Origin: an uncultured Clostridium sp.
GTDB lineage: Bacteria > Bacillota > Clostridia > TANB77 > CAG-508
Assembly: GCA_930982035.1 (NCBI GenBank)
Contig: CAKNJL010000004.1
Location: forward strand, 408 to 64,407
Direction: 5' to 3'
Length of the DNA: 64,000 nucleotides
Part shown: piece by piece, positions 16,276 through 37,527 of the stretch
Layout: each line of letters begins with the position of its first letter
Position numbering within the stretch: the first letter of the stretch is position 1
The notes under the pieces: generated by a model
Database searches by the model: none
What the model saw: the letters and a program-made list of their open reading frames with translations, nothing else
Told to the model about the DNA's origin: nothing
Translations under genes and position numbers: made by a program

Positions 16276-18135
16276 TTAATATTGATATAGAATGTTTTCT
16301 CCAATTTCTGTTATATTTAGTGGAAGAGTTTGATTCATGTAATTTACAATATTTAAATTAGTATTATCTATAATAATCCAATTTATTTTATATTTTTTTC
16401 TTAGAACGTTAAAGTCTTCAATACTAAGGTTTGGAACTGCATTCCTATAGATGTCACGAAGTGATTGAAGTTCCGATAATTCTTCTTGTGAAAGTATTTC
16501 ATACATATACATATCTCTTGACCAAATTATATTTATCTCAGAGCTTAATTGTCTCATGGTAGCACTATGTAAAGGTTCTGGCGGTGCTAGAACAGTAGCA
16601 GGTTCTGTGCTATTTTTTTCAGTTTCCTTATCCAATATATACTGTGTTTGGTCTATAATTGATTGAGGAATCTTATAAAAGTTTTCAGCTATTTCAAATC
16701 CATTGTCTTTTGTATAAACAAATTTCCCCATAAAGATTAGTAGTAATATTTCTATTAATAGAACTAGGGATTTGTATACTTTATTATTTTTTAAATTTAG
16801 TAGTATAACAAAAGAATATATTATTGAAAATTCTAGTGGTAGTAGCCAGAACAATCTCCAAAATACTTCAGTACCAGTAAAATATTGAGTGATATACTTA
16901 GTTAAAAATGGATTATATAATGTAACTAAGTAAATTAAAGGTACTAATACAAAATATCTTCGAGCCATAGAGTTTCCTTTAAGTAAGATTATAATAATGG
17001 AGAAGATATATAAAATAAAGTAATATCCGGTACCAATATAATTTTTAAAAATATCTAATATATTCAAATTCTCATTATATGTAGAACCATGAATGTTTTT
17101 GGCTATTATTAAATATAAAATACCATATATAGCGATTGGTAATCCTGTTAAGAGTAATTTTCCAAAAGTTTTCCAGTTTCTTTGAAATAATGCAATAATG
17201 CCAAATCCTATATAAGCAAAAGGAACTAAGAAAATAGCTGTGTTAGTAAAAAATACTGCTGATAAATTTAATATTAATAAGGCTTTTATATTTCTTTTTT
17301 CGTTATATTTTGATAGACTAATTAAATTTACTAGTATTAATGTAAGTACAATATTTAAAAATATTTCTTTTCCTTGCCACATTCTGCTTAGTAAGATAAT
17401 ACCTCTAAATCTTGATGTGAATCCACTAAATAAAAATAATATAGAGAGTAGTAATACATAAATCATGGCAGTTCTATTTTTATGTAATAATTTTCTTGCT
17501 AAAAGATAATATGCCATATATGAAAATAAAATCATTATAAAAGGTATTATAGTATGACATAATGTTGTTGAGGGGATATTAAAGATTTTAGCAAGAACGG
17601 ATAAACTTAATTCATATCCAGATATCATATATCTAGATAAAAATATCGTGTTTTCACTTCCTAATGAAGGTGCGTGTGTATAGATGGCATCAGAGTTTTG
17701 ATTTTCTTCTACTAGACTAACATAGAAAGCATCATCAGCATTTTCATTAAAAAGCAAACTAGAAACTGTAGCTTGAGTCAAAACCATTAAAATTAATATA
17801 GAAGCGATGACAAAGTCTGTTTTCTTTATGTGCTTTAATTTAGCATAGTTGTGTTTAAAAAATTTTTTTTCTTGCTTTGGTTTACAAATAAAGAAAGAAG
17901 TTATAAAGAGTATACTAATTATAAATATGGTTATATACAAGACAAATTCGAAACTTACATGCAATAAAATTAAAGGAATGTAAATGATTTGTAAAATTGC
18001 AACTGTTGTTAAAAAACCATATAATATAATTGATATATAATTATGGTTTTTTAATATTTTATTTATTATTAATCCTATTCTATAGCTAATAATTACAATT
18101 GTTAAATATAAAAATATAGTTTTCATAAAAAGCAT
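16276..18135 (-). CDS. Large polytopic membrane protein, GT-C-like glycosyltransferase/polymerase candidate
   Basis: More than 12 predicted TM segments. An acidic ENADDAFYV motif sits in the first external loop, as in GT-C enzymes. SD aaggag upstream. Confidence 0.6.
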   Translation of the reverse strand: MLFMKTIFLYLTIVIISYRIGLIINKILKNHNYISIILYGFLTTVAILQIIYIPLILLHVSFEFVLYITIFIISILFITSFFICKPKQEKKFFKHNYAKLKHIKKTDFVIASILILMVLTQATVSSLLFNENADDAFYVSLVEENQNSDAIYTHAPSLGSENTIFLSRYMISGYELSLSVLAKIFNIPSTTLCHTIIPFIMILFSYMAYYLLARKLLHKNRTAMIYVLLLSILFLFSGFTSRFRGIILLSRMWQGKEIFLNIVLTLILVNLISLSKYNEKRNIKALLILNLSAVFFTNTAIFLVPFAYIGFGIIALFQRNWKTFGKLLLTGLPIAIYGILYLIIAKNIHGSTYNENLNILDIFKNYIGTGYYFILYIFSIIIILLKGNSMARRYFVLVPLIYLVTLYNPFLTKYITQYFTGTEVFWRLFWLLPLEFSIIYSFVILLNLKNNKVYKSLVLLIEILLLIFMGKFVYTKDNGFEIAENFYKIPQSIIDQTQYILDKETEKNSTEPATVLAPPEPLHSATMRQLSSEINIIWSRDMYMYEILSQEELSELQSLRDIYRNAVPNLSIEDFNVLRKKYKINWIIIDNTNLNIVNYMNQTLPLNITEIGENILYQY

Positions 18136-18293
18136 TGAATATTTCTCCTTCTTTTCATTTTTATATTGAGATTATAACATAGCATATTATATATAACAAG
18201 TATAAAATTACATTTTTCGATAGATTTAATTGACAAAATATTAAATTAAATATACAATATAACAAAATAGAAAATGAGGAGTGAAAATACAAG

Positions 18294-19088
18294 ATGAGTT
18301 TTATAAAAGAAGTATGGAGAAATAGGAAATTAATATGGCAATTAGGGAAAAATGATTTTAAAAATAGATTTGCAAATACGAGTTTAGGTAGTATATGGGG
18401 GTATTTATCACCATTTATTTTTATGATGATGTATGTAATAGTATTTCAATTTATATTCAAAACACCAGGACCAAGTGCAGATATTCCATATATTGTATGG
18501 TTTATGCCAGGGATGGCTATGTGGATGTGCTTAAATGATGGAATTATTGGTGCTAGCAATGCTATTAGAGGATATAGTTATTTGGTAAAGAAGGTTGTAT
18601 TTCCAGTAGATGTTATACCGATTATTTCAATTATTGCAAATGCCTTTGTTGCTATATTTCTATTTTTATTAGCTACAGTAGTTTGTATTGCATACAAATG
18701 TATACCTAATATTTTAAGCATAATTTATATTATAGTAGCTGCATATGCTTTTTTAATAGCAGTAACAAGATTTACATCTGCTATAGTAACGTTAGTACCA
18801 GATTTTTCTAACTTATTAGGTATTATTATGCAATTGTTTTTCTGGTTAACACCAGTTGTTTGGAACTTATCAATGATAGCAAATAATCCAATGATTTTAC
18901 GAGTTTTAAAATGTATTCCATTTACATACTTGGTAACAGGATTTAGAGATTGCTTTATGGAAGGAAACATTGTAACAGCAGGACATGGAGCATATACGAT
19001 TGTTTTCTGGGTAATTACAATTATAATGTTTGTATGGGGGAATTATATCTTTAAAAAGAATAAAAAAGATTTTGCAGATGTACTATAA
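18294..19088 (+). CDS. ABC-2 type polysaccharide/teichoic-acid export permease (Wzm/TagG-like)
   Basis: 264 aa with 6 TM segments. The N-terminal KNDFKNRFANTSLGSIWGYLSP motif is typical of ABC-2 exporters. Promoter-like TTGACA-N17-TACAAT at 18231-18259. Confidence 0.85.
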   Translation: MSFIKEVWRNRKLIWQLGKNDFKNRFANTSLGSIWGYLSPFIFMMMYVIVFQFIFKTPGPSADIPYIVWFMPGMAMWMCLNDGIIGASNAIRGYSYLVKKVVFPVDVIPIISIIANAFVAIFLFLLATVVCIAYKCIPNILSIIYIIVAAYAFLIAVTRFTSAIVTLVPDFSNLLGIIMQLFFWLTPVVWNLSMIANNPMILRVLKCIPFTYLVTGFRDCFMEGNIVTAGHGAYTIVFWVITIIMFVWGNYIFKKNKKDFADVL

Positions 19089-19099
19089 GGAAGGAAAAA

Positions 19100-20092
19100 A
19101 TGGAAGAAAAAATAGATATATTACTTGCTACATATAATGGTGAAAAATATGTGCAAGAGCAAATAGAAAGTATTTTAAATCAGACATATAAAAATATACA
19201 TCTAATAATATCTGATGATGTATCTACAGATGGGACAAGAGAAATCCTGAAACAATATGAAGAAAATAAAAATATTACTATATATTATCAATCACAAAAT
19301 TTGGGATATATAAAAAATTTTGAATTTTTAATTTCTAAAGTAGAAAATAATATATATATGTTATCAGACCAAGATGATGTATGGCTACCAGAAAAAATTG
19401 AAAAAACATTTTCTGTGTTAAAAAAAGAGAATGCAGATATGGTTTTTAGCGATTTAAAAGTTGTAGATCAAAATTTAAAAGAACTATATGCATCATTTAA
19501 TGATTATATGCTTTTATCAAAAAAAATAAAAAAATATATAAATACAAAATATTTGAATTATTTATATAATTGTGTGACTGGATGTACTATTATGTCTAAG
19601 AAAGCATATATTAAATATATATTGCCAATACCGAACAAGTCGAAATATGTAGCACATGATTATTGGATGAGTTTAATGATTTCTATTAATGGTAAGCTAG
19701 CATATCTTCCAGAACAAACTATTTTATATAGGCAACATGGAGATAATCAGATAGGAACTGAAAAGATATCTCATAAATTTAAAAAATTAGAACAAGTTAG
19801 GAACTTATTCATAGAAGTAAAATTAGGTGTATTTTCAACATATGTAGAAAATAATTCTAAATTTCCCGAAGATATGCAAGAATTAAATAAAAAAGCATTG
19901 AATTATTATGAAATGATCACAAATAAAAAAAATTTTAATTTTAAAGGGTGGCATATATTTCATACCTTGTACAAGCATGAAAGAATATCATATTATATTT
20001 TAAATTTTATTATAATGAATTTACCATTTATAGGTAAAGGGTTATTCAAAGTTAGATATACTATTTTAAAGATTTTAGGGAAAAGAGATTAA
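19100..20092 (+). CDS. Family-2 glycosyltransferase (paralog of 11793..12779)
   Basis: DILLATYNGEKYV..SILNQTY..ISDDVSTD and DQDDVW motifs. Confidence 0.8.
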   Translation: MEEKIDILLATYNGEKYVQEQIESILNQTYKNIHLIISDDVSTDGTREILKQYEENKNITIYYQSQNLGYIKNFEFLISKVENNIYMLSDQDDVWLPEKIEKTFSVLKKENADMVFSDLKVVDQNLKELYASFNDYMLLSKKIKKYINTKYLNYLYNCVTGCTIMSKKAYIKYILPIPNKSKYVAHDYWMSLMISINGKLAYLPEQTILYRQHGDNQIGTEKISHKFKKLEQVRNLFIEVKLGVFSTYVENNSKFPEDMQELNKKALNYYEMITNKKNFNFKGWHIFHTLYKHERISYYILNFIIMNLPFIGKGLFKVRYTILKILGKRD

Positions 20093-20119: not shown

Positions 20120-21583
20120 ATGAGTCTTTCAATGGAAAATAATAATCAAAAAGAAAAGATGAACCAAAATGAATTAGAAGATTTAAATGAAATAGAGAAA
20201 TTAAATGCAGAAAAATTAAAAACATATGAGGATTTAGAGGATAAAAAAGATAATACAGTAGAAGATATAAAAGAAATATCAACAGAAACTGCAATAGAAA
20301 TAACAAATTTATGTAAACAATACAAAATGTTTGCAAGAAAAAAAGATAGAATACTGGAAACATTATTTCCATCACACCCAAGACATGGAGTATTTAGTGC
20401 AATAGAAGATTTTAATTTAGAAGTGAAAAAAGGAGAAGTGCTAGGTGTATTAGGAAAAAATGGAGCAGGAAAATCAACTTTATTGAAAATGATAACAGGA
20501 GTTGTTACGCCTACAGCGGGAGATATAAAAGTTAATGGGAAAATTAGTTCGTTGTTAGAGTTGGGGACAGCGTTTAATCCAGAATTAACAGGAATTGCAA
20601 ATATTTATCAACATGGACAAGTTATGGGATTATCTAACGAAGAAATTAAAGCGAAGGAACAAGAAATTATAGATTTTGCAGATATAGGAGAACATTTATA
20701 TCAACCTGTAAAAACGTATTCTTCTGGTATGTTTGCACGTTTGGCTTTTGCTTGTGCTATTAATGTTGATCCAGATGTCTTAATTGTTGATGAAGTTTTG
20801 TCAGTAGGAGATATGGCGTTTCAATTAAAATGCTTTAAGAAATTTGAGCAATTTAAGAAAAAGGGGAAAACCATACTTTTTGTAACACATAGCATCACAG
20901 ATATTTTAAGAAATTGTACTAGAACAATTATAATTGATTCTGGGAGAAAGATATTCGATGGTGGTGTAAAAGAAGGAGTAGAAAGGTATAAGAAAATTAT
21001 TGTGGGATTAAGTCCTAAAGAAAGCAAAGAAGGTGTTTTATCAGATAAAGAATTATTAGAAAAAAATGCAAATTATAATGCTGATAAAAAGGCAAGTGGA
21101 GATACATGGAAGTCTCACTTTAATGAAAATCCAAATTTAATTACATATGGTAATGGAGTAGCAGAAGTAATTGATTATGGAATGTTTGATGAAAAAGAAA
21201 ACTATATATCTGTCTTAGAAAATGATAGAGAAGTCATATTAAAATCAAAGATTAAATTTCATAAGGATGTTAAAGATCCGATTTTTACAATGACTGTTAA
21301 AGATTTTAAGGGATTGGAGATGTGTGGAACAAATACTTTAATAGAAAAGATTGCAACAGGAGATTATAAAAAAGGAGAAATTGTAGAAGTTTCATTTAAG
21401 CAAAAAATTAATGTCGCACCAGGTAAATACACATTATCTTTTAGTTGTACACATTTTAATCATAGAGGAGAACTAGAAGTATTAGATAGAAAATATGATG
21501 CTTTATTAATAGAAGTATTATCTACAAAGGATACTGTAGGACTTATGAGATTAGACTGTGATATTTCCATTCAAAAAGTATAA
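20120..21583 (+). CDS. Polysaccharide export ABC ATPase (Wzt/TagH-like) with acidic N-terminal extension and C-terminal Wzt_C-like glycan-binding domain
   Basis: Walker A GKNGAGKST, signature YSSGMFARL and Walker B LIVDEVLSVGD. The ~160-aa C-terminal beta-rich domain resembles Wzt C-terminal domains. Confidence 0.85.
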   Translation: MSLSMENNNQKEKMNQNELEDLNEIEKLNAEKLKTYEDLEDKKDNTVEDIKEISTETAIEITNLCKQYKMFARKKDRILETLFPSHPRHGVFSAIEDFNLEVKKGEVLGVLGKNGAGKSTLLKMITGVVTPTAGDIKVNGKISSLLELGTAFNPELTGIANIYQHGQVMGLSNEEIKAKEQEIIDFADIGEHLYQPVKTYSSGMFARLAFACAINVDPDVLIVDEVLSVGDMAFQLKCFKKFEQFKKKGKTILFVTHSITDILRNCTRTIIIDSGRKIFDGGVKEGVERYKKIIVGLSPKESKEGVLSDKELLEKNANYNADKKASGDTWKSHFNENPNLITYGNGVAEVIDYGMFDEKENYISVLENDREVILKSKIKFHKDVKDPIFTMTVKDFKGLEMCGTNTLIEKIATGDYKKGEIVEVSFKQKINVAPGKYTLSFSCTHFNHRGELEVLDRKYDALLIEVLSTKDTVGLMRLDCDISIQKV

Positions 21584-21600
21584 TAGTTAAAGGAGAAAAG

Positions 21601-22530
21601 ATGAATAATAATAGATGTAATAATATAAAAATAGTGACATTTTCAATACTAATATTATTAATGATATTATTTGTAGTAGTCTATATATTTTCTAAAGGAA
21701 ATAAAGAAATAAAAACAACAAAATTAACACAATTAAAAAATAATACAAATAGGCAAATGATGGGGTATATTATAAAAACTGAAAATGATAATACTGTTGT
21801 GATTGATGGGGGGACTAAAGACGATACAGAAAATTTAATACAATGGATAAATCAACAAGGAGGAGAAGTACATTCTTGGTTTATTACACATCCACATATT
21901 GACCACATGGGGGCCTTTTTGAAAATTGTAGAAGAAACAGAAATTCCAATCAATCATATATATGTGACATTAAATGATTTGACTTGGTATGAAAAAAATG
22001 GCCCAACTGAGGCTAATGAAATTAATGAAGTGAAAGAATTTTTTGATGTGATACAAAATTCAAGAATTTCGAGAGCTGTACAAGAAGTCTATCTAGACCA
22101 AAATATAGAAATAGACAATTTGAATTTTGAAATTATAGGAGTCAAAAATCCAGAAATAATAAATAATGGAAACAATAATTCAAGTATGGTAATAAAAATG
22201 CATTCAGATACAAAAACCGTAATATTTTTAGCAGATACGGGAGAAGAGAGTGGTAAAAAATTATTAGAAAATCAAAGTGACAAATTGAAAGCTGATATTG
22301 TACAAATGGCGCATCATGGTCAAAATGGAGTAACAGAAGATGTATATAAAGCAATAAATCCTGAAATATGTTTATGGCCAACACCAGACTGGTTATGGAA
22401 TAATGATTCTGGAGAGGGAGAAGATTCAGGCGATTGGAAAACCAAAATAACTAGGGAATGGATGAATAAATTGAATGTTAAGAAAAATATAATCGGAAAA
22501 GATGGAGATCAAACAATAGAACTTCCATGA
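21601..22530 (+). CDS. Membrane-anchored metallo-beta-lactamase-fold hydrolase
   Basis: N-terminal TM helix; HPHIDHMG (HxHxDH) and a downstream MAHHG motif. Confidence 0.7.
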   Translation: MNNNRCNNIKIVTFSILILLMILFVVVYIFSKGNKEIKTTKLTQLKNNTNRQMMGYIIKTENDNTVVIDGGTKDDTENLIQWINQQGGEVHSWFITHPHIDHMGAFLKIVEETEIPINHIYVTLNDLTWYEKNGPTEANEINEVKEFFDVIQNSRISRAVQEVYLDQNIEIDNLNFEIIGVKNPEIINNGNNNSSMVIKMHSDTKTVIFLADTGEESGKKLLENQSDKLKADIVQMAHHGQNGVTEDVYKAINPEICLWPTPDWLWNNDSGEGEDSGDWKTKITREWMNKLNVKKNIIGKDGDQTIELP

Positions 22531-24395
22531 TAATAGTAAAGGAGAGAAATTCATTGAAATTAAGTACAGAATTTTATCATAATGAAATTCCAATTTCAAA
22601 AGAAAAAAAAGATTTAATTGATAAATATATAAATCAATACGAGATAGAGAATTATGAAGATAAATTTGATGAAAATATAACATGTGAGGAATTGTATTAC
22701 TTAACAGCAACTAGTCAAAACTTGTTAAATTGGTATCCTTTTTCTAGTGAATGCGAAATATTAGAATTGGGAGGAGATATAGGAGAACTTACAGGATTAT
22801 TCTGCCAGAAATGTAAAAAAGTGCTAACAGTTGAACCACAATTGGATTGCGCAAAAGCGATTAGTAAAAGGTATAAAAATAGGGAGAATTTAGAGATTGT
22901 TGCAGGAAATTTGAAAGATATAGACTTAGAAGAGAAATTTGATATTATAACATTTATTGGAAATATTGATAGAATAGAGGAAATAGTAGGAGAAGATATT
23001 TCATTAGAGAAAACAATAGAATATTTGGAAAATTTCTTAAAAGAGAATGGAAGGATATTATTAGCTATTGACAATAAATTTGGATTAAGATATTGGTCAG
23101 GAAATCCAGACAATATTTTAAATAAGAAATTTTCAAGTTTAATAGGATATCATAATGAACCTAAAGTATATGAAACGTATACAAGAAAAAGTTTAGAAAT
23201 TATGTTAAAAAATATGGGGTATTATACAAATTTTTATTATCCATTACCAGATTATAAAATGCCCAATGTTATATTTACAGATAATGGATTACCTCAATAT
23301 AATAGCATAGATAAATATAATCCTTATTGTGCTGGGAAATCTGATTTGATTATAAATGAAATAGATGTATTTAGAGAAATTTTAAAAACAAATCCAGAAA
23401 TGTTTACATTTTTTACAAATTCTTTTTTAATAGAAATCTCAAAAGAAACAATGAATTTGCCATATAAATATATATCATTTAATAATTTAAGAAAAGCAAA
23501 ATACCGATTAATAACTAAAATAGGAGAAGATATTGTTGAAAAGCAAGTAGTCACAGGTGAAGCTAGAGAACATCTAGAACATATGGGAGAAAATATTAAT
23601 TTATTAAAAGAAAATGCTATTAAAAGTTTAGATGAAATGAAGGAAAATCATTTAATTAGTAAATATGTTGATCAAAAATATCTCTTAAACGAAGTACTTA
23701 CACAAGAATTAGAAAAAGGAAATCAAAAAACGTTTGATTATATAATAGAAAAATATAAAGACATATTATTAAAAAACTCGTTTAAAATAGAAAGCTATGA
23801 GGATACTATATTTAAACAATATAATATACCTGTTAAAGATGAAAATTTGATAAAAGATATGAATTTTCTAGAAAATGGCTTGTGGGATATGACTTTTAAA
23901 AATTGTTTCTATATAGAAAATGAATTTTATTTTTTTGATCAAGAATGGAGAGCGAAACATATACCTGTTGAATTTATATTATATAGATCAATAATATATA
24001 CAATATCTTTAAGAAGATATATTAACATAGAAGATTTAATGGAGAAATATCATTTAAAGAAATACAGAGAAATATTTGATGAACTAGATAGTAAACTTCA
24101 AAAAGAAATTAGAGATGACAAGATATGGAAGTTTTATAGTCAGAATAAATATTTTGATATAGAAGCAACAAAACAAGAATTAATTAATGTAAAACAGCGA
24201 GATGAAGCTAAGGAATTAGCAATAAAAAATTTACAGAAAGATAATACATATTTATTAAATGAGAGAGAAAATTTAATAAAAGAGAATGAAGAATTAACAA
24301 ATGAATTGAATTATGTAAAAAAATTGTATGGTGAGAAACTTAGTGTAAAGGTTTATAGGAAAATAAAGAGATTTTGGGGAGGAAAAAATGAATAA
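22527..24395 (+). CDS. Class I SAM-dependent methyltransferase with large middle domain and C-terminal coiled coil (WbdD/WsaE-like chain terminator candidate)
   Basis: Motif I ILELGGDIGELTG. The C-terminal ~80 aa are heptad-rich (ELINVKQRDEAKELAIKNLQKDNTYLLNERENLIKENEELTNELNYVKKL). Overlaps both neighbours by 4-8 nt. Confidence 0.65.
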   Translation: MIIVKERNSLKLSTEFYHNEIPISKEKKDLIDKYINQYEIENYEDKFDENITCEELYYLTATSQNLLNWYPFSSECEILELGGDIGELTGLFCQKCKKVLTVEPQLDCAKAISKRYKNRENLEIVAGNLKDIDLEEKFDIITFIGNIDRIEEIVGEDISLEKTIEYLENFLKENGRILLAIDNKFGLRYWSGNPDNILNKKFSSLIGYHNEPKVYETYTRKSLEIMLKNMGYYTNFYYPLPDYKMPNVIFTDNGLPQYNSIDKYNPYCAGKSDLIINEIDVFREILKTNPEMFTFFTNSFLIEISKETMNLPYKYISFNNLRKAKYRLITKIGEDIVEKQVVTGEAREHLEHMGENINLLKENAIKSLDEMKENHLISKYVDQKYLLNEVLTQELEKGNQKTFDYIIEKYKDILLKNSFKIESYEDTIFKQYNIPVKDENLIKDMNFLENGLWDMTFKNCFYIENEFYFFDQEWRAKHIPVEFILYRSIIYTISLRRYINIEDLMEKYHLKKYREIFDELDSKLQKEIRDDKIWKFYSQNKYFDIEATKQELINVKQRDEAKELAIKNLQKDNTYLLNERENLIKENEELTNELNYVKKLYGEKLSVKVYRKIKRFWGGKNE

Positions 24396-26490
24396 AAAAA
24401 TTAATATTTATAAAACGCAAAAGAAAAAATTGAATATAAATGTTCCAAAAAAGGTAAGTGTAATTATTCCAAATTATAATTATCAAGATTATATAATCGA
24501 AAGAATTGATTCTATTTTAATGCAAACATATCCAATATATGAACTTATTATATTAGATGATTGTTCGACTGATAATAGTGTAGAAGTAATAGAAGAAAAA
24601 ATAAAAACTATACCGAAAGACATAAAAGTAAAATTCATAAAAAACGAAAAAAATAGTGGAGGATGTGTTTTTAAACAATGGAAAAAAGGATTTGATGTTT
24701 CTACAGGGGACTTTATATGGATAGCAGAAGCCGATGATAGTGCTGAAAGTACTTTCGTAGAAGAATTGATAAAACCATTTGATGATGAAGAAGTTATTTT
24801 ATCTTATTGTGAATCTGCAAGAATTGATGGAGAAAATAATTTAATAAGAGAAAAATCAGATGATTTATATGATATGTGTCGAACAGGAGAATGGAATAAT
24901 TCTTATACATGGACAGGGAAAGAAGAAAATATTTACCATTTAAGTGTAACAAATACAATTCTAAATGTGTCTAGTGTTATGTGGAGAAAGAAAGACTATA
25001 CAGAGATTTTGGAAAAAGCAGGAGAATTTAGAGTAGCAGGAGACTGGTATATATATAGCCACATTTTAAAAGATGGAAAAATAAGTTGGAATAGTAAACC
25101 ATTAAATTATTATCGTAAGCATGGAAGCTCTGTTTGCACAGATATTAAATGGGAAATTGAATATAATGAAATATGTAAAATACAAGATGAAATTTCTAGT
25201 TGGTATGACTTACCAGAAGAAGTTAAGAAAAAACAGGAAATGAGAAGAGAATTAATGAGACAATCTATGCCTCCAAAGGATAGTGGAAAAAAGAAAATTG
25301 CATGGGTAATACCACATCCAGGAAAAGGTTCTGGAGGACATAGAACAATTATTCAAAACGTAAATGCATTAATTAACCATGGATATGAATGTGATATTTA
25401 TGTAGAAGAAGATGGAGTATCTACACCACAAACTGTTAAAGATAAGATAAATAGTTGGTATGAAAAATGTGATGCTGGCGTATATGTAGGAATGGAACTA
25501 AAAAAAGATTATGATATAGTATTTGCTACAGGATGGCAAGTTATTAACTTTGTAAGAAGAATGCAAGCAAGAAAAAAAGCTTATTTTATACAAGATTTTG
25601 AACCATGGTTTTTCCCTATGGGAGATCAATATTTAATTATTGAAAATTCTTATAGATATGGTTATAAGCCAGTTACTATAGGAAAATGGTTAGCACATAA
25701 GATGTCAGCAGAATTTAATACACCTGTTCAATATTTTGACTTTGGAGCAGATTTAAACACATATAAAAAACTAACGAATGTGAAAAAAGAAAATGCAATA
25801 TGTTTTGTATATCAACCAGAAAAACCTAGACGTTGTGATTATATAGGATTAAAAGCATTAAAAATTGTAAAAACAATAAGACCAGATATACAAATTTATT
25901 TATATGGTTCTAATGCACCTGCTGGTTTTGAGTTTGAATGCAAGAATTTAAATATTATACCAATTAAAGAATGTAATGAACTATACAATAAATGTATGGT
26001 AGGAATATGTATGAGTTCTTCAAATCCATCAAGGATTCCATTTGAAATGATGGCAGCAGGATTACCAGTAGTTGAACTTTATAGAGAAAATAACCTATAT
26101 GACTTACCAGATGAAGGTGTATTACTTGCAGAGCCTTCTCCAGAAGCAGTTGCAAATGCAATTTTATATTTAGTCGACCATCCAGAAATAAGAGAAAAGA
26201 TGTCTAATTTCGGAACACAATTTATGAAAGATTATCCGCTAGAAAAAGGATTTTCACAATTCTTGAAAGCGGTTGATGATATGATAAATACAGATTATGA
26301 AGAAAAAAATGAAATAAAAAAATTATATAACAAAGAACCATTTAAAGCAAGCGAAGAAACAACAAAAGTAGCAATTGAGGGCATAGAACCAGTTTATATT
26401 GATACACATGGACCAATATATAGATTTTTGAGAAGAGTAAAACGATTACTTAAAGGTTGGTTAATAAAATTGGGGATAAAAAAATCATAA
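24388..26490 (+). CDS. Bifunctional glycosyltransferase (N-terminal GT2 plus C-terminal GT4/WsaF-like rhamnosyltransferase domain)
   Basis: VSVIIPNYN...DDCSTDNS (GT2). The second half has KIAWVIPHPGKGSGGHRTI, typical of WsaF-like enzymes. Confidence 0.7.
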   Translation: MNKKINIYKTQKKKLNINVPKKVSVIIPNYNYQDYIIERIDSILMQTYPIYELIILDDCSTDNSVEVIEEKIKTIPKDIKVKFIKNEKNSGGCVFKQWKKGFDVSTGDFIWIAEADDSAESTFVEELIKPFDDEEVILSYCESARIDGENNLIREKSDDLYDMCRTGEWNNSYTWTGKEENIYHLSVTNTILNVSSVMWRKKDYTEILEKAGEFRVAGDWYIYSHILKDGKISWNSKPLNYYRKHGSSVCTDIKWEIEYNEICKIQDEISSWYDLPEEVKKKQEMRRELMRQSMPPKDSGKKKIAWVIPHPGKGSGGHRTIIQNVNALINHGYECDIYVEEDGVSTPQTVKDKINSWYEKCDAGVYVGMELKKDYDIVFATGWQVINFVRRMQARKKAYFIQDFEPWFFPMGDQYLIIENSYRYGYKPVTIGKWLAHKMSAEFNTPVQYFDFGADLNTYKKLTNVKKENAICFVYQPEKPRRCDYIGLKALKIVKTIRPDIQIYLYGSNAPAGFEFECKNLNIIPIKECNELYNKCMVGICMSSSNPSRIPFEMMAAGLPVVELYRENNLYDLPDEGVLLAEPSPEAVANAILYLVDHPEIREKMSNFGTQFMKDYPLEKGFSQFLKAVDDMINTDYEEKNEIKKLYNKEPFKASEETTKVAIEGIEPVYIDTHGPIYRFLRRVKRLLKGWLIKLGIKKS

Positions 26491-26508: not shown

Positions 26509-28212
26509 ATGAAAGCAATTTTTAGGAAAGTTAAAAAAGTATTTCATGCAATTAAAATCCAAAATATAAAAGCAATTATAAGATATATAAAAAATAATGG
26601 ATTTAAAGGCTTATATACAACATGTATAAATAAAATACGTTTTGGAACTGTTATATTAGATGAATATAAAACATGGATGGCAAATAATGAACCATCTAAA
26701 GAAGAATTGGAAAAGCAACGTAAATATGTATCTTGTCAAAATTTAAAATTTGAACTAATTGTGATGAAAACTACAGAAAGTCTTCAAAATAGTATACAAG
26801 ATCAAACATATTCCAATTTTGTAAAAACAGAAATACAAGATAGATCACTATTAGATATTGTAACAAATTCAACTAGTGATTATCTTGTATTGATTGGAGA
26901 AGACATTGTTTTACCAGAGTTTACACTTTATGAGCTTGTAAAATCAATAGAATATAGAGATTCTATTATGATTTATGCAGATAATGATACTATAATAGAT
27001 GGAGAAAGGAAAAATCCTAATTTTAAACCAGATTTTTCGAAAGATACATTAACTTCTGAAAACTACTTGGGGAATTTTTTGGTAATAAAGACAGACTTTC
27101 TAAAGATACATCAAAATATTTTGCAGAATCTTAATAAAAACATAATTTATGATTTGGCTTTTAGAGTAAGTGAAAAAACAAGGAAAATAGAACATATACA
27201 AAAAGTATTATTCCATAATATAACAACAAATATGGAATATGATACAGAAGATGAAAAAAAGATTATAGCAGATTATCTAAAAAGATGTAATTTACAGTAT
27301 AATGAGATTATAGATGGAAGATATAAAGGACAATATAAAGTTCAATATGCAATTATTGGAAATCCAAAAGTATCCATCATTATACCAAATAAAGACCACA
27401 TAGAAGACCTAGAAAAGGCGATTAGTTCTATACTAGAAAAATCTACTTATAGAAATTATGAAATTGTTATAGTAGAAAATAACAGTGAAAATAAAAGCAC
27501 TTTTGAATATTATGAAAAAATTCAAAAGGAAAATCCAAATAAAATACGTGTTGCAAATTTTAAAATAGATTATTTTAATTATTCAGCATTAGTAAACTTT
27601 GGTGTAGAGCATGCAGAAGGAGAATATGTTATATTGTTAAATAACGATATAGAAATCATTAATGAAGATTGGATTGAACAAATGTTGATGTATGCACAAA
27701 GAAAAGATGTTGGAATATGCGGAGCAAAACTATATTTTCCAGATAGAAGTATACAACATGCAGGAGTTACAATAGGTACAAGAGGATTGGCAGGACATCG
27801 CTTTAGAGAAATTGAAGAAAAAGATTATCATCGTGATGATTATATTAATATTGTACAGAATGTTAGTGCAGTTACAGCTGCTTGTTTTATGGTAAGAAAA
27901 GATTTATACATAGAATTACTGGGATTTGACGAAAAATTAGCAGTTGCTTTTAATGATGTAGATTTTTGTTTAAAAGTTAGAACAGCAAAATACCTAGTTG
28001 TTTATAACCCATATGTTGAAGCATATCATTATGAATCAAAATCTAGAGGACAAGATCAAGAATCAGAAGACAAGCAGAAACGTTTTGCTAAGGAGTATGA
28101 ACTTTTTGTTAAAAGGTGGTCAAAAACAATACAAAAAGGAGATCCATATTATAATAAAAACTACAGACTAGATACAGATTTACCAAAAATTAACTATAAT
28201 AAAATCCATTAG
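26509..28212 (+). CDS. Two-domain family-2 glycosyltransferase
   Basis: C-terminal GT2 core VSIIIPNKD...IVIVENNS...LLNNDIE. The N-terminal half is a degenerate GT-A-like domain. Confidence 0.75.
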   Translation: MKAIFRKVKKVFHAIKIQNIKAIIRYIKNNGFKGLYTTCINKIRFGTVILDEYKTWMANNEPSKEELEKQRKYVSCQNLKFELIVMKTTESLQNSIQDQTYSNFVKTEIQDRSLLDIVTNSTSDYLVLIGEDIVLPEFTLYELVKSIEYRDSIMIYADNDTIIDGERKNPNFKPDFSKDTLTSENYLGNFLVIKTDFLKIHQNILQNLNKNIIYDLAFRVSEKTRKIEHIQKVLFHNITTNMEYDTEDEKKIIADYLKRCNLQYNEIIDGRYKGQYKVQYAIIGNPKVSIIIPNKDHIEDLEKAISSILEKSTYRNYEIVIVENNSENKSTFEYYEKIQKENPNKIRVANFKIDYFNYSALVNFGVEHAEGEYVILLNNDIEIINEDWIEQMLMYAQRKDVGICGAKLYFPDRSIQHAGVTIGTRGLAGHRFREIEEKDYHRDDYINIVQNVSAVTAACFMVRKDLYIELLGFDEKLAVAFNDVDFCLKVRTAKYLVVYNPYVEAYHYESKSRGQDQESEDKQKRFAKEYELFVKRWSKTIQKGDPYYNKNYRLDTDLPKINYNKIH

Positions 28213-28249: not shown

Positions 28250-29809
28250 ATGAATACAGAAAAACTAAAAAAATATTTAAAAATAATTAATGAATTCGTA
28301 TTACGATTTGGATTCGTTTTTGAGTTTATTTTTTCCATTATAATGGCAATTGCTGTATACAAAGTGATTATGTATAAAACATATTATGAACATTTTTCTT
28401 ATAAAAACATGATATTAATCGTGGTTTCAGTAATTATTATTCTATATATTGCTATTTTAAATATCGTGAAAAATAAGAAAAAATATGAAAAGATTTTCTT
28501 GCATCTTATGATACCAATAGGAAGTCTATTTCTAATTTTAATGATACCAGGCTTTGTAGCAGATGAGCCTGCACATATTTATAGAGCTTATGATATATCA
28601 AGAGGGATTTTGATACAACCAATAGATGAAAATGGAAAATCAAGTAGTAGTATACCAAAAGATTTTAATTTAAATCATAGAGATACATTTAGTAATTACA
28701 AAACTTTAAATGATAAATTTAAAGAACAAACAGATTATAATGAAACAGAAGAATTGTATAACCCTGCACAAGGATATAATCCAATTATGTACTTATTTTC
28801 TAGTATTGCTTTTTTAATAGGAAGAGTATGTGGAATGAATTCTTTTTTAGTTATATATATGGCTAGAATTTTTAATTTCATTCTATTCCTATTTTTAGGA
28901 TATTATGCAATAAAGATAATACCATTAGGCAAGTTTCTATTATTGGTATATTTCTTCAATCCAATGATGATAAGCCAAGCAACTTCTGTTTCAGCAGATA
29001 GTATTATCAATTCTATTGTCATATTTTTTATAGCTTTTGTCTTGCATTTATATTTTCAAGAAAAAGAAATGACAAAAGTACAAAAAATTATATTTGTTAT
29101 AAATGCAATTGCAGTTTCGTTGGCTAAATATGTATATTTCCCAGTGATATTCATATCATTAATATTATTAAAATCTAAGGCAATTGGAGAGAAAAAAAAT
29201 AGAAAACTTATTTATATAACAATTGCAGTTACTTTATTATTAGCTGTAGCAAGTTACTGGATAGGTAGCCAATATGAGAACTTGGGAGCATATGCAAAAG
29301 AGCACTATGTAAATTCAACGGAACAAATAAAAAATATAATTACTAATCCAATACGATATATTGGGACAATTTTTACAACTTTGGCAGAATTTGGAGAATA
29401 CTATTTTTACGGTTTTGCAGGTAAATATCTTGGTTGGATAAATATTTTGGTTAATAGTGTACCAATTATTATATACGGATTTTTATTATTAATGACACCA
29501 ATGATAGAAAAAAATAATAAAGCCCTAAAAAGAAAAGATAAAATAATATGTAATGTTGTTTTTTTAGTAGTATTTATCTTAGTATTAACAGGAATGTATT
29601 TAATTAATTCGGAAGTAGAATCTAATATTATTGAAGGAGTACAAGGAAGATATTTTATACCAATTATTCTATTACCATTAATTACATTTATTATGAAAAA
29701 CAAATATATGAATTATAGTGAAAGAAATGTACTAATTTTGTATATTCTATTTATATTTTTTATTGATGGATCTGCTTTAAATGCAATGTGTAAATTTTTT
29801 ACAGTATAA
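28250..29809 (+). CDS. Polytopic membrane protein, DUF2142/GT-C-like glycosyltransferase candidate
   Basis: About 12 TM segments, with an ADEPAHIYRAYD motif in the first external loop. Confidence 0.6.
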   Translation: MNTEKLKKYLKIINEFVLRFGFVFEFIFSIIMAIAVYKVIMYKTYYEHFSYKNMILIVVSVIIILYIAILNIVKNKKKYEKIFLHLMIPIGSLFLILMIPGFVADEPAHIYRAYDISRGILIQPIDENGKSSSSIPKDFNLNHRDTFSNYKTLNDKFKEQTDYNETEELYNPAQGYNPIMYLFSSIAFLIGRVCGMNSFLVIYMARIFNFILFLFLGYYAIKIIPLGKFLLLVYFFNPMMISQATSVSADSIINSIVIFFIAFVLHLYFQEKEMTKVQKIIFVINAIAVSLAKYVYFPVIFISLILLKSKAIGEKKNRKLIYITIAVTLLLAVASYWIGSQYENLGAYAKEHYVNSTEQIKNIITNPIRYIGTIFTTLAEFGEYYFYGFAGKYLGWINILVNSVPIIIYGFLLLMTPMIEKNNKALKRKDKIICNVVFLVVFILVLTGMYLINSEVESNIIEGVQGRYFIPIILLPLITFIMKNKYMNYSERNVLILYILFIFFIDGSALNAMCKFFTV

Positions 29810-29867: not shown

Positions 29868-32800
29868 ATGAAAAATAAAATGAAATCAAGAATTAAATAC
29901 TATATTGTTATGATATTTGTTTTTATAGCACTAGTAATTTTAAATAACAACATTAGTAAGGCTTCAAATGATACGGAAATGATGTTAGACTATCCACGCG
30001 AAGCAACTGTGAAGACAGAAATGTATGTTGAGGGTTGGATTATGTCTCAACAAGAAACAGAATTAAAAGTATTGATTGGAAATTATGATGTTACAGATCA
30101 ATTGGTTAGAGAAGAAAGACAAGATGTTATTAATGCTATAAAAGGGTATGGAGATGAGATAATGAATCCTACACCTGGTTTTAGTGGTACTGTAGATTTA
30201 ACACAAATACCAGATGGAACCTATGTGTTGTCTGCTCAAGCGATATCAACTAAGACAGGGAAAATTTTAAAAAAATTAGATAAGCAAATTACGGTAAAGA
30301 AATATAATACTAATTTACATATTGATTATCCAAATATAGAAGAACAAAAAGATACATTTTACTTAGAAGGCTGGGTTATGTCAGAAGATCCAGGAACAAT
30401 TATTAAGGTTTTTATTGATGGTTATGAAGTAGAGCAACAAATTAATAGAACAAAAAGAAGAGATGTTATAAATGCTATCAAAGGATATGGAACAAAAAGT
30501 GAAAATCCATTTCCTGGTATTGAGGCAACAATTGATGTCAGTCATTTAACAGATGGACCACATACAGTGGTTATTAGAGCACAATCATCTTCTACAAATG
30601 AAATCTATATGGAATGTACGAAGAATATTCGAGTGAAAAAGTATGATAGTCAAATTTGTTGGGACTATCCCAAATTGAACCAAACTTCTAATTATGATTT
30701 ATATATAGAAGGTTGGGTTATGTCAGAAGATAAAAATGCAACAGTACAAATATTAGTTGATAATAATGATGTTACAGAGAATATTGAAAGAACAGAAAGA
30801 CAAGATGTATTGAATGCAGTTAATGGCTATGGAGGAAAAGATAAAAATGTAGCACCTGGATTTGTAGGAAATGTGAATTTAGAAAATTATAAAGACGGAG
30901 TTCATACTATAACATTAAAAGTAAGTTCACCAAAAACAGGAGAGCTTATTTATGAAAAATCAAGAAGATTTGTATTAAATAAATATAGTTCAGATTATAG
31001 GTTCGATTATCCAATACAAAATGGAACTGTAAAAGATAATCTGTATATTGAAGGTTGGATAATGAGTGAAAATAAAAATGCAACAATTACCTTGAGTATT
31101 GATGGAAAAGATTACTCTAGTCATATACAAAGAGTAGAAAGACAAGATGTATTAAATGCAGTGAGTGGATGTGGAGGAAAAGAAGCAAACCCATTACCAG
31201 GATTTTATGCTAATATAGATATTAGTGACGTAAAGGATGGACTACATAAAGTGGCATTACAGATAACATCACCACAAACGAATGAAATAATTGCAAGACA
31301 AGAAAAAATAATTCAAGTACATAAGTATGAATCTACTATGATATTTGATTATCCAAAGCAAGGACAAAATGAAAAAAATAATTTATATGTAGAAGGCTGG
31401 TTGATGAGTGAGAATGAGGATGCAAAAATTAATCTGTACATTGATGGAGAGGATTACTCTAGCTATTTGCAAAGAGTAGAAAGACAGGATGTATGGAATG
31501 CTATTAAGGACTATGGGGGAAAAGAAAAAAATCCATTACCAGGATTTAAGGCAAATATCGATTTAACAAACATAAAAGATGGAAAACATACGGTAACTTT
31601 ACATATTATTTCACCATTAACAAATGAAACAATTTTTAAACAAGAAAGAACAATACAAGTAAATAAGTATGAATCTACAATGATGTTAGATTATCCTAAA
31701 CAAGGGGAAATGAAAAAAACAGATTTATATGTAGAAGGTTGGTTAATGAGTGAGGATGAAAATGCAAAAATCACTTTAAGTATTGATGGAAAAGATTATT
31801 CTACTTATATTGAAAGAGTAGAAAGAGAAGATGTATGGAATGATATAGAAGACTATGGAGGAAAAGAAACAAACCCATTACCAGGATATATAGCAAATAT
31901 TGATTTAACAAATATAAAGGATGGAACACATACAATTCTAGTACAAGCAATTTCACCTAAAACGAATGAAATGTTATGTGAAATAAGAAGAACAATTAAC
32001 ATAAAAAAATATGATGGGACAATATATATAGAAACACCAATTTCTAATATGATAACAACACAAGAATTATATATAGAGGGATGGACAATGACAGAATGTC
32101 CAAAATCAACTGTTAAAATTTTAATGGATAATCGTACTATAGATGTAGAAGTAAAAAGAAGAGAAAGAGCAGATGTAATAAATGCAATTAAAGATTATGG
32201 AGGAATAGAAGAAAATCCTACACCTGGATTTTATACAACTGTAAATACGAAACAATTTACTGAAGGAAGACATACATTAACAATTCAAGTGATTTCTAAT
32301 TTAGGAGAGGTTATTACTGAGTATAATAAAGTTATTAGTATTTATTTAAATAAATATTGGGGAATTGATGTTTCTGAGCATCAAGGAGAAATAAATTATG
32401 ATGCATTAGTATCAACTCAAAAATTAGATTTTATGATTATAAGAGCTGGATATGGTAAATTTCCAGAGCAAATTGATGATTATTTTGAGAGAAATTACAG
32501 AGAAGCGACAGCAAGAAATATTCCTGTAGGTGCATATTTGTATTCATATGCAACCGACGTAGAAGGAGCAAAATTAGAGGCATATAATATGCTTTCATGG
32601 CTTAATGGAAGAAGTTTTGAATTACCAATTTTTTATGATATAGAAGATTCAACACAAGATGGGATTGATATGCAAACAAAAACAGATATGTGTATTGCAT
32701 TTTGCGATATAATAAAATCAGCTGGATATAAAGTAGGAATTTATACAAATAAAAATAGATTAATTACACAAATTGATTTAGACAGAATACCAAATGATTA

Positions 32801-32963
32801 TTCTATTTGGGTAGCAAGTTATGGTCAAAATAATGGTGATGTTCCAGATGACATATATCAATATACAGGAAATCATGATATATGGCAATACACATCAACA
32901 GGAACGATTAATGGAATTAGTGGATACGTAGATTTTAATATATGCTATAAAAAATATTTTTAG
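29868..32963 (+). CDS. Secreted GH25 muramidase with 7 copies of the same ~112-aa repeat module
   Basis: Signal/anchor helix. Repeats span nt ~29979-32354. The C-terminal GH25 domain has GIDVSEHQGEINYD, DFMIIRAGYG, and later YDIE and WQYT. Confidence 0.85.
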   Translation: MKNKMKSRIKYYIVMIFVFIALVILNNNISKASNDTEMMLDYPREATVKTEMYVEGWIMSQQETELKVLIGNYDVTDQLVREERQDVINAIKGYGDEIMNPTPGFSGTVDLTQIPDGTYVLSAQAISTKTGKILKKLDKQITVKKYNTNLHIDYPNIEEQKDTFYLEGWVMSEDPGTIIKVFIDGYEVEQQINRTKRRDVINAIKGYGTKSENPFPGIEATIDVSHLTDGPHTVVIRAQSSSTNEIYMECTKNIRVKKYDSQICWDYPKLNQTSNYDLYIEGWVMSEDKNATVQILVDNNDVTENIERTERQDVLNAVNGYGGKDKNVAPGFVGNVNLENYKDGVHTITLKVSSPKTGELIYEKSRRFVLNKYSSDYRFDYPIQNGTVKDNLYIEGWIMSENKNATITLSIDGKDYSSHIQRVERQDVLNAVSGCGGKEANPLPGFYANIDISDVKDGLHKVALQITSPQTNEIIARQEKIIQVHKYESTMIFDYPKQGQNEKNNLYVEGWLMSENEDAKINLYIDGEDYSSYLQRVERQDVWNAIKDYGGKEKNPLPGFKANIDLTNIKDGKHTVTLHIISPLTNETIFKQERTIQVNKYESTMMLDYPKQGEMKKTDLYVEGWLMSEDENAKITLSIDGKDYSTYIERVEREDVWNDIEDYGGKETNPLPGYIANIDLTNIKDGTHTILVQAISPKTNEMLCEIRRTINIKKYDGTIYIETPISNMITTQELYIEGWTMTECPKSTVKILMDNRTIDVEVKRRERADVINAIKDYGGIEENPTPGFYTTVNTKQFTEGRHTLTIQVISNLGEVITEYNKVISIYLNKYWGIDVSEHQGEINYDALVSTQKLDFMIIRAGYGKFPEQIDDYFERNYREATARNIPVGAYLYSYATDVEGAKLEAYNMLSWLNGRSFELPIFYDIEDSTQDGIDMQTKTDMCIAFCDIIKSAGYKVGIYTNKNRLITQIDLDRIPNDYSIWVASYGQNNGDVPDDIYQYTGNHDIWQYTSTGTINGISGYVDFNICYKKYF

Positions 32964-33015: not shown

Positions 33016-33957
33016 ATGGAAAAAATATCAATAATCGTACCATGCTATAATGAAGAAGAGAGTTTACCATTATTCTATCAAGAAATGGAAAAAGTAAGAG
33101 AAAATGATTTTCATGATGTGGAAATGGAATATATATTTGTAGATGATGGTTCAAAGGATAGTACCTTGAAAGAAATTAAGAAATTAAAAGAACATGATTC
33201 AAAAGTAAAATATATTTCATTTTCTAGAAACTTTGGGAAAGAATCAGCAATGCTTGCAGGGTTAGAATCTTCATCAGGTGATTATGTTACATTAATGGAT
33301 GCTGATTTACAAGATCCCCCTTCATTACTAAGAAAAATGTATGATATCATAAAAAATGAAGACTATGATTGTGTTGGAACGAGAAGAGTTACTAGAAAAG
33401 GAGAGCCACCTATTAGAAGTTTTTTTGCAAGAATATTTTATAAATTGATAAATAAAATGTCAGATGTAGAAATGGTAGATGGAGCAAGGGATTATAGATT
33501 GATGACTAGGCAAATGGTTGATGCTATAATTTCAATGAGAGAATATAATCGTTATTCAAAGGGAATATTTAGTTTTGTAGGTTTCAAAACTAAATGGTTA
33601 GAGTATGAAAATATTCAAAGAGTAGCAGGAGAAACTAAATGGTCTTTTTGGAAATTATTTAAATATGCAATAGAAGGAATAACAGCTTTTTCAACTGTTC
33701 CATTAATACTTTCTTCAATAATTGGATTGTTGTTTTGCTTAATTTCTTTTCTATTAATTGTAATTATTATAATAAAAACTTTAATGTATGGGGATCCTAC
33801 ATCTGGTTGGCCATCATTAGTATGTATTATATTTTTAGTAAGTGGTGTTCAATTGTTTTCACTTGGAATAATCGGGCAATATTTGTCAAAAACATATTTA
33901 GAAGTAAAGCGAAGACCAAAATATATTGTAAAAGAAACTAATGTTAATAAAAAATAA
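33016..33957 (+). CDS. Polyprenol-phosphate glycosyltransferase (GtrB/CsbB-like GT2 with two C-terminal TM helices)
   Basis: ISIIVPCYNEE...VDDGSKD...MDADLQDPP, plus a C-terminal TM pair. Confidence 0.85.
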   Translation: MEKISIIVPCYNEEESLPLFYQEMEKVRENDFHDVEMEYIFVDDGSKDSTLKEIKKLKEHDSKVKYISFSRNFGKESAMLAGLESSSGDYVTLMDADLQDPPSLLRKMYDIIKNEDYDCVGTRRVTRKGEPPIRSFFARIFYKLINKMSDVEMVDGARDYRLMTRQMVDAIISMREYNRYSKGIFSFVGFKTKWLEYENIQRVAGETKWSFWKLFKYAIEGITAFSTVPLILSSIIGLLFCLISFLLIVIIIIKTLMYGDPTSGWPSLVCIIFLVSGVQLFSLGIIGQYLSKTYLEVKRRPKYIVKETNVNKK

Positions 33958-34029
33958 GAAAATATATTGAGTTTGATATAAAAAAATGATATTATTATCA
34001 TATCATATATTTTTAAGAAGGGAGAAACT

Positions 34030-34719: not shown

Positions 34720-34739
34720 AAATATATGAGGAGGAAAAA

Positions 34740-35102: not shown

Positions 35103-35132
35103 AGGAAATGTGCTATGAAAGGGAGAAAAATA

Positions 35133-35486: not shown

Positions 35487-35586
35487 AAAAGTACAAGGAA
35501 AACCTTGTACTTTTTTCATTTAAATGATATGATATATGAAGTTGAATAGTGCAAAGATTTTAAAAAAATTGAAAGGAAGTGTAATA

Positions 35587-37512: not shown

Positions 37513-37527
37513 TAGGAGGAACTTTAA

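Follow-up and report, generated by a model that had tools for sequence, protein, structure and literature searches.

How Gram-positive bacteria terminate and size their rhamnose wall polysaccharides is an open question, for which a 2022 review offers only an untested cap-sugar hypothesis concerning RgpE (PMC9574508). The question is raised again by a glycan locus in an uncultured Clostridium species. The DNA considered here, referred to as the window, is a stretch of 64,000 nucleotides (nt) from contig CAKNJL010000004.1 (positions 408 to 64,407; assembly GCA_930982035.1), and a single glycan locus occupies positions 18294-39249 on its + strand. A preliminary description of the window had proposed that the locus pairs a chain terminator, a 622-amino-acid (aa) protein with a coiled coil, with an ABC exporter whose ATPase, Wzt, reads the chain cap through its C-terminal domain. 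This core idea is supported by homology, synteny and co-occurrence, while the make-up of the terminator and the predicted chemistry of the cap have to be revised. The best explanation, which we consider probable, is that the 622-aa protein is a kinase-methyltransferase that caps the chain with phosphate or methyl phosphate, and that it works with a cap-reading Wzm/Wzt exporter.

A kinase-like domain in the 622-aa protein

The 622-aa protein had been described as a methyltransferase joined to a long coiled coil. Both of these parts are present, but the protein consists of four: between the methyltransferase and the coil lies a kinase-like domain of ~245 aa, and the coil is followed by an amphipathic tail (Table 1). 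The kinase-like domain had been overlooked.

The kinase-like domain is of the choline kinase and aminoglycoside phosphotransferase (ChoK/APH) type. The region is highly conserved and includes the motifs YRLITKI...VEK, WDMTFKN and FFDQEW. Across a 44-sequence alignment that reaches down to 21% identity, Lys339, Asn459, Asp471 and Glu473 are invariant and Asp454 is nearly so. Taken together, these residues match the pattern seen in choline and aminoglycoside kinases: a Lys that binds ATP, a catalytic loop of the form DxxxxN and a DxE site for metal. AlphaFold models the domain with a predicted local distance difference test (pLDDT) score of 92, and all of the top 50 Foldseek matches in the PDB are protein-kinase-like small-molecule or atypical kinases of the ChoK/APH/Rio type, including LicA (the best match, 4r7b, E 7.8e-5), MphB, APH(2'')/(3'), Rio and MTR kinase.

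No Pfam or NCBIfam model was found for this domain, even at E ≤ 1 over 27 homologues, and members of the family are therefore annotated only as methyltransferases. Where the databases give these proteins any name, it is only 'SAM-dependent methyltransferase' (SAM, S-adenosylmethionine). Sequence searches of solved structures, made with the whole protein and with a 27-sequence profile, likewise returned only generic methyltransferases (KsgA, ToxA) and nothing for the middle domain. A profile of the kinase domain matched 2,945 clusters at E ≤ 1e-3, and ~2,300 at E ≤ 1e-10, among 1.84 billion representatives; in these matches the domain is nearly always preceded by about 200-300 residues.

Relationship to the O7 terminator of Klebsiella pneumoniae

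The closest relative of the window protein is the ORF6 terminator of Klebsiella pneumoniae O7 (ORF6-O7). At its N-terminal end ORF6-O7 has a methyltransferase, followed by an APH-like kinase that is unannotated in databases and then by a coiled coil; in vitro, this N-terminal enzyme phosphorylates terminal rhamnose and then adds methyl, and the substitution D441A abolishes phosphorylation (PMC11231755). The ORF6-O7 query sequence was machine-read from Fig. 9 of the supplementary information of that paper and is slightly noisy. Over the methyltransferase, BLASTP gives 30% identity across 199 aa (E 2e-23) and hhalign gives 99.5% (E 1.9e-22). For the kinase, the single machine-read region yields only a short N-lobe match to the domain alignment (49%), whereas a profile built from the kinase regions of nine orthologues yields 93% (E 2.9e-7). 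The two profiles align collinearly between ANSFL and the catalytic loop, with FIDAVPQN opposite LWDMTFKN and Asp441 opposite Asp454. Together, the methyltransferase and kinase matches assign the window protein, by sequence, to the O7-type methyltransferase-kinase terminator family.

The two proteins share the order of methyltransferase, kinase and coiled coil, and both are encoded in rhamnose-polymer clusters that contain wzm/wzt and rml genes. Some ORF6-O7 orthologues stop after the coil, as the window protein does (PMC11231755). ORF6-O7 itself differs in having an immunoglobulin (Ig)-like carbohydrate-binding module after the kinase and two family 2 glycosyltransferase (GT2) polymerase modules after the coil, whereas the window protein ends in an amphipathic helix, has its glycosyltransferases encoded by separate genes and carries a non-canonical SAM loop. 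The orthologues listed in PMC11231755 belong to alpha- and gammaproteobacteria and to cyanobacteria, not to Firmicutes or Clostridia.

This relationship changes the expected cap. The preliminary description had looked for a terminal O-methyl sugar; because the relatives are O7 ORF6 terminators, the predicted cap is instead phosphate-based, probably methyl phosphate, and the window protein is predicted to phosphorylate, or methyl-phosphorylate, the glycan terminus.

The methyltransferase domain and the question of the methyl group

The methyltransferase is of class I. On the 622-aa protein itself the Pfam match is weak (PF13489, E 6e-4, below the cut-off); the same model is matched by 27 of 27 aligned homologues, with a best E of 5.9e-15, and the class I methyltransferase reported two genes after wzt is thereby borne out. 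The SAM loop reads ELGGDIG and departs from E/DxGxGxG in that the middle Gly is replaced by Asp. This residue, Asp84, occupies the position of ORF6-O7 Gly93 and is Asn in most homologues. Glu80, Gly82 and Gly86 of the loop are present, and Glu103 corresponds to ORF6-O7 Glu112. In ORF6-O7 itself the loop glycines are Gly91 and Gly93, and Glu112 and Tyr158 are further residues in contact with SAM. Among 27 sequences of 49-67% identity, the invariant residues are Gly83, Gly86, Thr101, Glu103 (the ribose-binding acidic residue), Asn121 and Asp182-Asn183. Because the loop is non-canonical, methylation is less certain than phosphorylation, which is the better-supported step. Going by the sequence features, we lean towards the view that the domain would methylate the cap phosphate.

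Related loci vary in this part of the protein. Homologues were collected in 80 loci (given L-numbers here) from species-representative genomes. Some of these loci contain a standalone methyltransferase paralogue that keeps the canonical motif LEIGAGMGAITG and LIGVLEYA, as ORF6-O7 does; such genes lie at 16806-17789 in L042, 16971-17954 in L079, 7192-8400 in L035 and 6056-7183 in L013, and in these loci the methyltransferase half of the terminator itself is degenerate or truncated. In L016, L019, L027 and L031 the methyltransferase half is degenerate and there is no paralogue within the fetched DNA. Motif I and the Glu of beta2 are gone from short forms of the terminator. The window protein stands between the canonical and degenerate forms, with ELGGDIG in the loop, Glu103 kept and the Tyr of LIGVLEYA lost. 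A genome-wide search of the source genome found no second, canonical methyltransferase paralogue.

The strongest rival to a methyl-phosphate cap, though in our judgment an unlikely one, is that the cap is phosphate only, or else some other phospho-derivative (a cyclic phosphate, for instance), with the kinase as sole activity and the methyltransferase-like domain a remnant that does not bind SAM. The altered loop and the missing Tyr, both of which are intact in the standalone paralogues and in ORF6-O7, fit such a remnant; many relatives have a degenerate methyltransferase and no second gene and yet possess a Wzt_C domain 80-87% identical to that of the window; and there is a Gram-positive precedent in the 2,3-cyclophospho-rhamnose on the S-layer glycan of C. 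difficile SLCT-11 (PMC6254364). The domain is nevertheless strongly constrained, as its invariant residues indicate, Pfam methyltransferase models match every member of the family, and the genome offers no other paralogue as a candidate for the methyl step. Moreover, active methyltransferases with a residue other than Gly at the middle position exist, for example catechol O-methyltransferase with its GAYCG loop.

Comparison with other capping systems

The preliminary description had likened the design of the protein to that of WbdD, an enzyme of Escherichia coli O9a and K. pneumoniae O3 (4AZS, 4AZT, 4AZW; PMC3482155). The likeness holds for architecture and domain order: WbdD is a standalone protein with methyltransferase, kinase, coiled coil and membrane-binding amphipathic end, and its partner Wzt has a C-domain that binds the methyl-phosphate cap. 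The full-length model of the window protein was aligned across both catalytic domains only by the WbdD structures 4azs, 4azt, 4ax8 and 4azw (485-503 columns, E ~3e-8). WbdD is not, however, demonstrably closer kin. PDB searches gave no significant sequence match to it, and it is absent from the top 50 fold matches of the isolated kinase domain; the WbdD kinase is eukaryotic-protein-kinase-like (Src-like), whereas the window kinase is nearest to ChoK/APH/Rio. The O7-type kinase also differs from that of WbdD (PMC11231755). In addition, the C-terminal domain of WbdD has ~250 residues, compared with ~55 in the coil of the window protein, and the O9a sugar is mannose while that of the window is probably rhamnose.

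A second analogue had been seen in WsaE of Geobacillus stearothermophilus, a methyltransferase fused to two rhamnosyltransferase domains; its methyltransferase domain caps the poly-rhamnan S-layer glycan with 2-O-methyl-rhamnose (PMC2943079). The WsaE/Wzt system resembles the window in being a Gram-positive, ABC-transporter-dependent rhamnan pathway with a capped terminus, and in having a WsaF-like domain, rml genes and a similar order of wzm, wzt, glycosyltransferases and rml. WsaE differs in having no kinase and no reported coil ruler, and its cap is 2-O-methyl-rhamnose. No S-layer oligosaccharyltransferase gene was seen in the window. A WsaE-like reading of the 622-aa protein was rejected because the protein has no glycosyltransferase domains, where WsaE has two, and a kinase-like domain follows its methyltransferase; WsaE is thus not the closest relative.

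These comparisons bear on another rival, in which the terminal sugar is capped directly with O-methyl, as by WbdD of E. coli O8 or by WsaE, and the middle domain is a non-catalytic spacer. The gene cluster of the WsaE-capped rhamnan of G. stearothermophilus has the same wzm-wzt-GT-rml layout (PMC2943079), and the binding domain of Aquifex Wzt reads 3-O-methyl sugars (PMC9445017). We regard this rival as very improbable: the middle domain is a confident kinase fold that keeps its ATP-binding Lys, catalytic-loop Asp and Asn and metal-binding Asp throughout the family, its alignment with the ORF6-O7 kinase, whose activity has been shown by experiment, extends to Asp441, and of the two catalytic domains the kinase is better preserved than the methyltransferase; there are also no glycosyltransferase domains of the WsaE kind.

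A third point of comparison is the S-layer glycan of C. difficile SLCT-11, which ends in 2,3-cyclophospho-rhamnose. It too is a clostridial, ABC-exported, rhamnose-rich glycan, with a phosphate-based cap at the non-reducing end that has been proposed to terminate synthesis; the capping enzyme is not identified in that report, and the likeness drawn here is one between glycans (PMC6254364).

The exporter and its putative cap-reading domain

That the ABC ATPase carries a C-terminal domain like Wzt_C was confirmed, and the domain is a genuine Wzt_C: the PF14524 match reaches 115.9 bits against a cut-off of 30.4, spans profile positions 4-143 of 143 and lies C-terminal to the nucleotide-binding domain. 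It is the sole copy in the genome. Whereas the whole Wzt is closest to the Aquifex structures 8dku and 7k2t (E ~1e-70), the isolated C-domain is closest to PDB 2R5O, the C-domain of E. coli O9a Wzt, over the full domain (E 6.5e-10). Identity to this best solved relative is only ~25-30%, and the cap specificity of the window Wzt_C is therefore unreadable from sequence. By analogy with the characterised domains, those of E. coli O9a (2R5O) and Aquifex (6O14, 8DKY), the window Wzt_C would recognise the chain cap.

The window Wzt differs from other Wzt_C-bearing proteins in an unusual acidic N-terminal extension of ~58 aa, rich in Glu, Lys and Asn, ahead of the nucleotide-binding domain. A mis-called start was considered and ruled out; the extension is probably real, since the reading frame contains no ATG, GTG or TTG between codon 14 and the nucleotide-binding domain. 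Among 56 related Wzt proteins, similarly long N-termini occur only in L001, L002, L016 and L055.

The coiled coil, the tail and the spacing between them

The coiled coil announced for the C-terminus is present but is not long: it covers ~55 residues within one predicted helix (aa 545-617), and its heptad register is constant over ~8 heptads. Coil and tail together comprise 78 residues. The tail is a cationic amphipathic helix, KLSVKVYRKIKRFW, with a hydrophobic moment up to 0.87 and a net positive charge, and standalone homologues likewise end in a conserved basic motif. It is a candidate anchor to the membrane or to a partner protein.

In 90 distinct homologue tails we took as the spacer the distance from NLQ to the basic YRKIK motif, both of which are conserved anchors. 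It is 28, 35, 42, 49 or 56 residues in 55 tails and 18, 32, 39 or 46 residues (heptads plus 4) in 29; together the heptad and heptad-plus-4 classes cover 84 of 89 tails, with five elsewhere. Such heptad-stepped lengths match the expectation for a coil that must keep its register. They fit variation in length by whole heptads and are no proof of a ruler; the coil is a candidate molecular ruler.

In seven loci (L040, L042, L050, L054, L065, L071 and L079), GT2 modules replace the amphipathic tail, giving proteins of about 1084-1204 aa from open reading frames that begin near 9950. The GT2 fused behind the coil is homologous to the window gene at 26509-28212. These terminator-coil-GT2 fusions reproduce the layout of ORF6-O7 and link the terminator to the polymerase.

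Genomic coupling

Terminator and exporter are tightly coupled in genomes. A Wzt with Wzt_C lies within 10 kb in 56 of the 80 homologue loci, usually directly upstream. In an even sample of 151 genomes from the same order as the window, Wzt_C scored above the cut-off in 28 and the kinase domain was found in 26, while 122 had neither; Wzt_C is present in all 26 kinase-bearing genomes, in nearly every case at a distance of a few kb. Among 24 other genomes of the window's genus, nine have both and 15 have neither. This co-occurrence shows that the genes are inherited together; it does not independently prove that they interact.

A distant branch of the family, at 25-30% identity, adjoins a flagellin gene in glycosylation islands of Lachnospiraceae, with no ABC exporter, and suggests a second use of this enzyme type in flagellin glycan modification. 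One such homologue lies at 7874-11878 in L062 (Lachnospira eligens), and others are in L072, L041, L046, L053 and L060; their surroundings encode glycosyltransferases, LicD and methyltransferases.

The weakest rival, that the protein is not a chain terminator and instead decorates the glycan with phosphate or methyl phosphate internally or at some other position, or modifies another glycoconjugate in this way, with a coil that only oligomerises and a Wzt_C that reads something else, could appeal to the flagellin-linked members and to the 24 of 80 loci in which no Wzt_C was seen within 10 kb, but it has little chance of being correct when the Wzt_C linkage is near-complete within the window protein's own clade, the nearest homologue of known function acts as a terminator (PMC11231755), the fusions to polymerase glycosyltransferase modules behind the coil give a terminator-ruler-polymerase layout, and the spacer between the two conserved anchors is restricted to heptad steps.

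A proposed mechanism of capping and export

With the capping kinase-methyltransferase and cap-reading exporter as the preferred explanation, the following scheme can be proposed. Cytoplasmic glycosyltransferases would extend the chain on a lipid carrier. The methyltransferase and the ChoK/APH-like kinase would sit on the ~55-residue coiled-coil stalk, with the cationic amphipathic helix at the membrane or the polymerase. Using ATP, the terminator would phosphorylate the non-reducing terminal sugar, probably rhamnose, and would then probably methylate the phosphate with SAM. The cap would halt elongation, and Wzt_C on the Wzm/Wzt exporter would recognise it, such that only finished chains are exported; the length of the stalk may help to set the length of the chain. 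We infer the acceptor sugar, the methyl step, the recognition of the cap by this Wzt_C and the ruler function from the comparisons given above.

Several observations weigh against this scheme. The organism is represented by an uncultured metagenome-assembled genome, ~88% complete. The SAM loop is non-canonical, with Asp84 for ORF6-O7 Gly93, and the Tyr of LIGVLEYA is missing. Sister lineages with a degenerate methyltransferase, some with and some without a separate canonical gene, keep a Wzt_C that is ~80% identical, so that in the present case the methyl group may be missing or may not be needed. The likeness of Wzt_C to 2R5O leaves the bound cap unspecified, and the coil is far shorter than the C-terminal domain of WbdD, which spans residues 460-708 (PMC3482155). 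The co-occurrence is partly simple linkage in one mobile gene cluster, and the genomes are related to one another. Finally, the branch in the flagellin islands lacks an ABC exporter, so enzymes of this type are not confined to the capping of polymers.

Organization of the locus

The source genome is a 2.16-Mb assembly, the window has a G+C content of ~27%, and its closest public relatives are uncultured gut Clostridia. We infer from the genes in Table 1 that the locus makes a rhamnose-containing surface polysaccharide by the ABC-transporter-dependent route. The remainder of the window consists of housekeeping genes.

Table 1. Genes, domains and other features of the glycan locus (nt positions in the window)
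Feature	Position	Strand	Remarks
DUF6077 membrane protein	16276-18135	-	divergent, upstream of the locus
TTGACA-17-TACAAT	18230-18258		upstream of wzm; promoter-like by consensus match only
wzm, ABC-2 permease of glycan exporter	18294-19088	+	PF01061 ABC2_membrane, E 1.7e-10
GT2 glycosyltransferase, TuaG-like	19100-20092	+	PF00535, E 9e-29
wzt, ABC ATPase	20120-21583	+	PF00005 and PF14524 (Wzt_C)
Wzt N-terminal extension	20120-20293	+	~58 aa
Wzt nucleotide-binding domain	20294-21034	+	aa ~59-305
Wzt_C	21143-21553	+	aa 342-478; PF14524, E 1.9e-33
Membrane-anchored metallo-beta-lactamase-fold (MBL) protein	21601-22530	+	PF00753, E 3.7e-11, ComEC-MBL-like
622-aa putative terminator protein	22527-24395	+	methyltransferase, kinase-like domain, coil and tail
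Methyltransferase domain	22674-23411	+	aa ~50-295
Kinase-like domain	23412-24146	+	aa ~296-540
Coiled coil	24159-24326	+	aa 545 to ~600
Amphipathic tail	24327-24377	+	C-terminal helix
Bifunctional GT2 and WsaF-like (GT4-type rhamnosyltransferase-like) glycosyltransferase	24388-26490	+	PF00535, E 1e-28; WsaF_C, E 1.2e-15; WsaF_N, E 3.9e-5
GT2 with 280-aa N-terminal region	26509-28212	+	PF00535, E 1.7e-22, aa 289-470
DUF2142 polytopic protein	28250-29809	+	
GH25 muramidase with Ig-like repeats	29868-32963	+	
Two GT2s, DUF2304 and small protein with four transmembrane segments (4-TM)	33016-35486	+	
14-bp palindromic stem-loop	35485-35516		between the small 4-TM gene and rmlD; A and T runs on both sides
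rmlD, rmlA, rmlC, rmlB, dTDP-L-rhamnose synthesis	35536-39249	+	Pfam: RmlD_sub_bind, E 1e-98; NTP_transferase, E 1e-74; dTDP_sugar_isom, E 1e-75; GDP_Man_Dehyd/Epimerase, E 1e-92

In related loci wzm is syntenic, at 55-89% identity, and the TuaG-like GT2 is kept between wzm and wzt in most. The two glycosyltransferases that follow the terminator gene are probably components of the polymerase. The first, in which the predicted WsaF-like domain was found together with a GT2 domain, is syntenic in close relatives at 68-90% identity. The rhamnose genes noted earlier as rfbDACB also proved to be present, as rmlD, rmlA, rmlC and rmlB.

The MBL-fold protein has an N-terminal hydrophobic helix and an HPHIDH metal motif. 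Its gene lies between wzt and the terminator gene in about half of the related loci and is absent from the others, as an optional member of the module; the membrane-anchored enzyme might process the cap. Overlaps of 4-8 nt had been described for the genes from 21601 to 26490. The 8-nt overlap of the terminator gene with the glycosyltransferase gene (ATG 24388) is real. Between the MBL gene and the terminator gene, the ATGA overlap of 4 nt requires a start at ATG 22527 and is doubtful, because homologues begin at the position of TTG 22554, which has the ribosome-binding site AAGGAGAG 8 nt upstream and is likely the true start.

A scan of the window for promoters and terminators, which gave no enrichment over shuffled sequence, suggests an operon from wzm to about 35486. 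The stem-loop that follows may be a bidirectional terminator separating the glycan operon from the rml genes.

The DUF6077 and DUF2142 proteins are two GT-C-like polytopic proteins, and the two GT2s at 33016-35486 resemble polyprenyl-phosphate-sugar synthases. With DUF2304 and the 4-TM protein, they look like machinery for the extracytoplasmic addition of side-chain sugars. An initiating transferase, an LCP ligase and a Wzy_C-type ligase were sought and none was found in the window; they are present elsewhere in the genome, which encodes one LCP ligase, one WbaP-like transferase, one Wzy_C protein and a second Glycos_transf_4 enzyme. One of the two Glycos_transf_4 enzymes is presumably MraY.

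Implications

The mechanism of capping and export is already known from the O-antigens of Klebsiella and E. coli, and specialists in O-antigen assembly will find the mechanism itself unsurprising; here it would operate in a Gram-positive-type lineage, with a terminator in standalone form. The locus provides a concrete candidate on the Gram-positive side for a kinase/methyltransferase terminator paired with a cap-reading exporter, and the window protein extends the recently defined O7-type terminator family, which is large, beyond Proteobacteria and cyanobacteria. The heptad-stepped stalks are natural variants that bear on the ruler idea.

Finally, we offer a speculation that we hold only tentatively. 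Gut Clostridia may contain a naturally graded set of chain-length rulers and of cap chemistries, in which stalk steps of about 1 nm (28-56 residues) would tune the length of the wall glycan as a selectable trait. Methyltransferases that are canonical and separate, non-canonical and fused, or deleted would correspond to methyl-phosphate versus plain-phosphate caps read by an almost unchanged Wzt_C, and the MBL enzyme might process the cap. If this is true, it would be the first defined system of chain termination and length control for a Gram-positive-type rhamnose wall polysaccharide.

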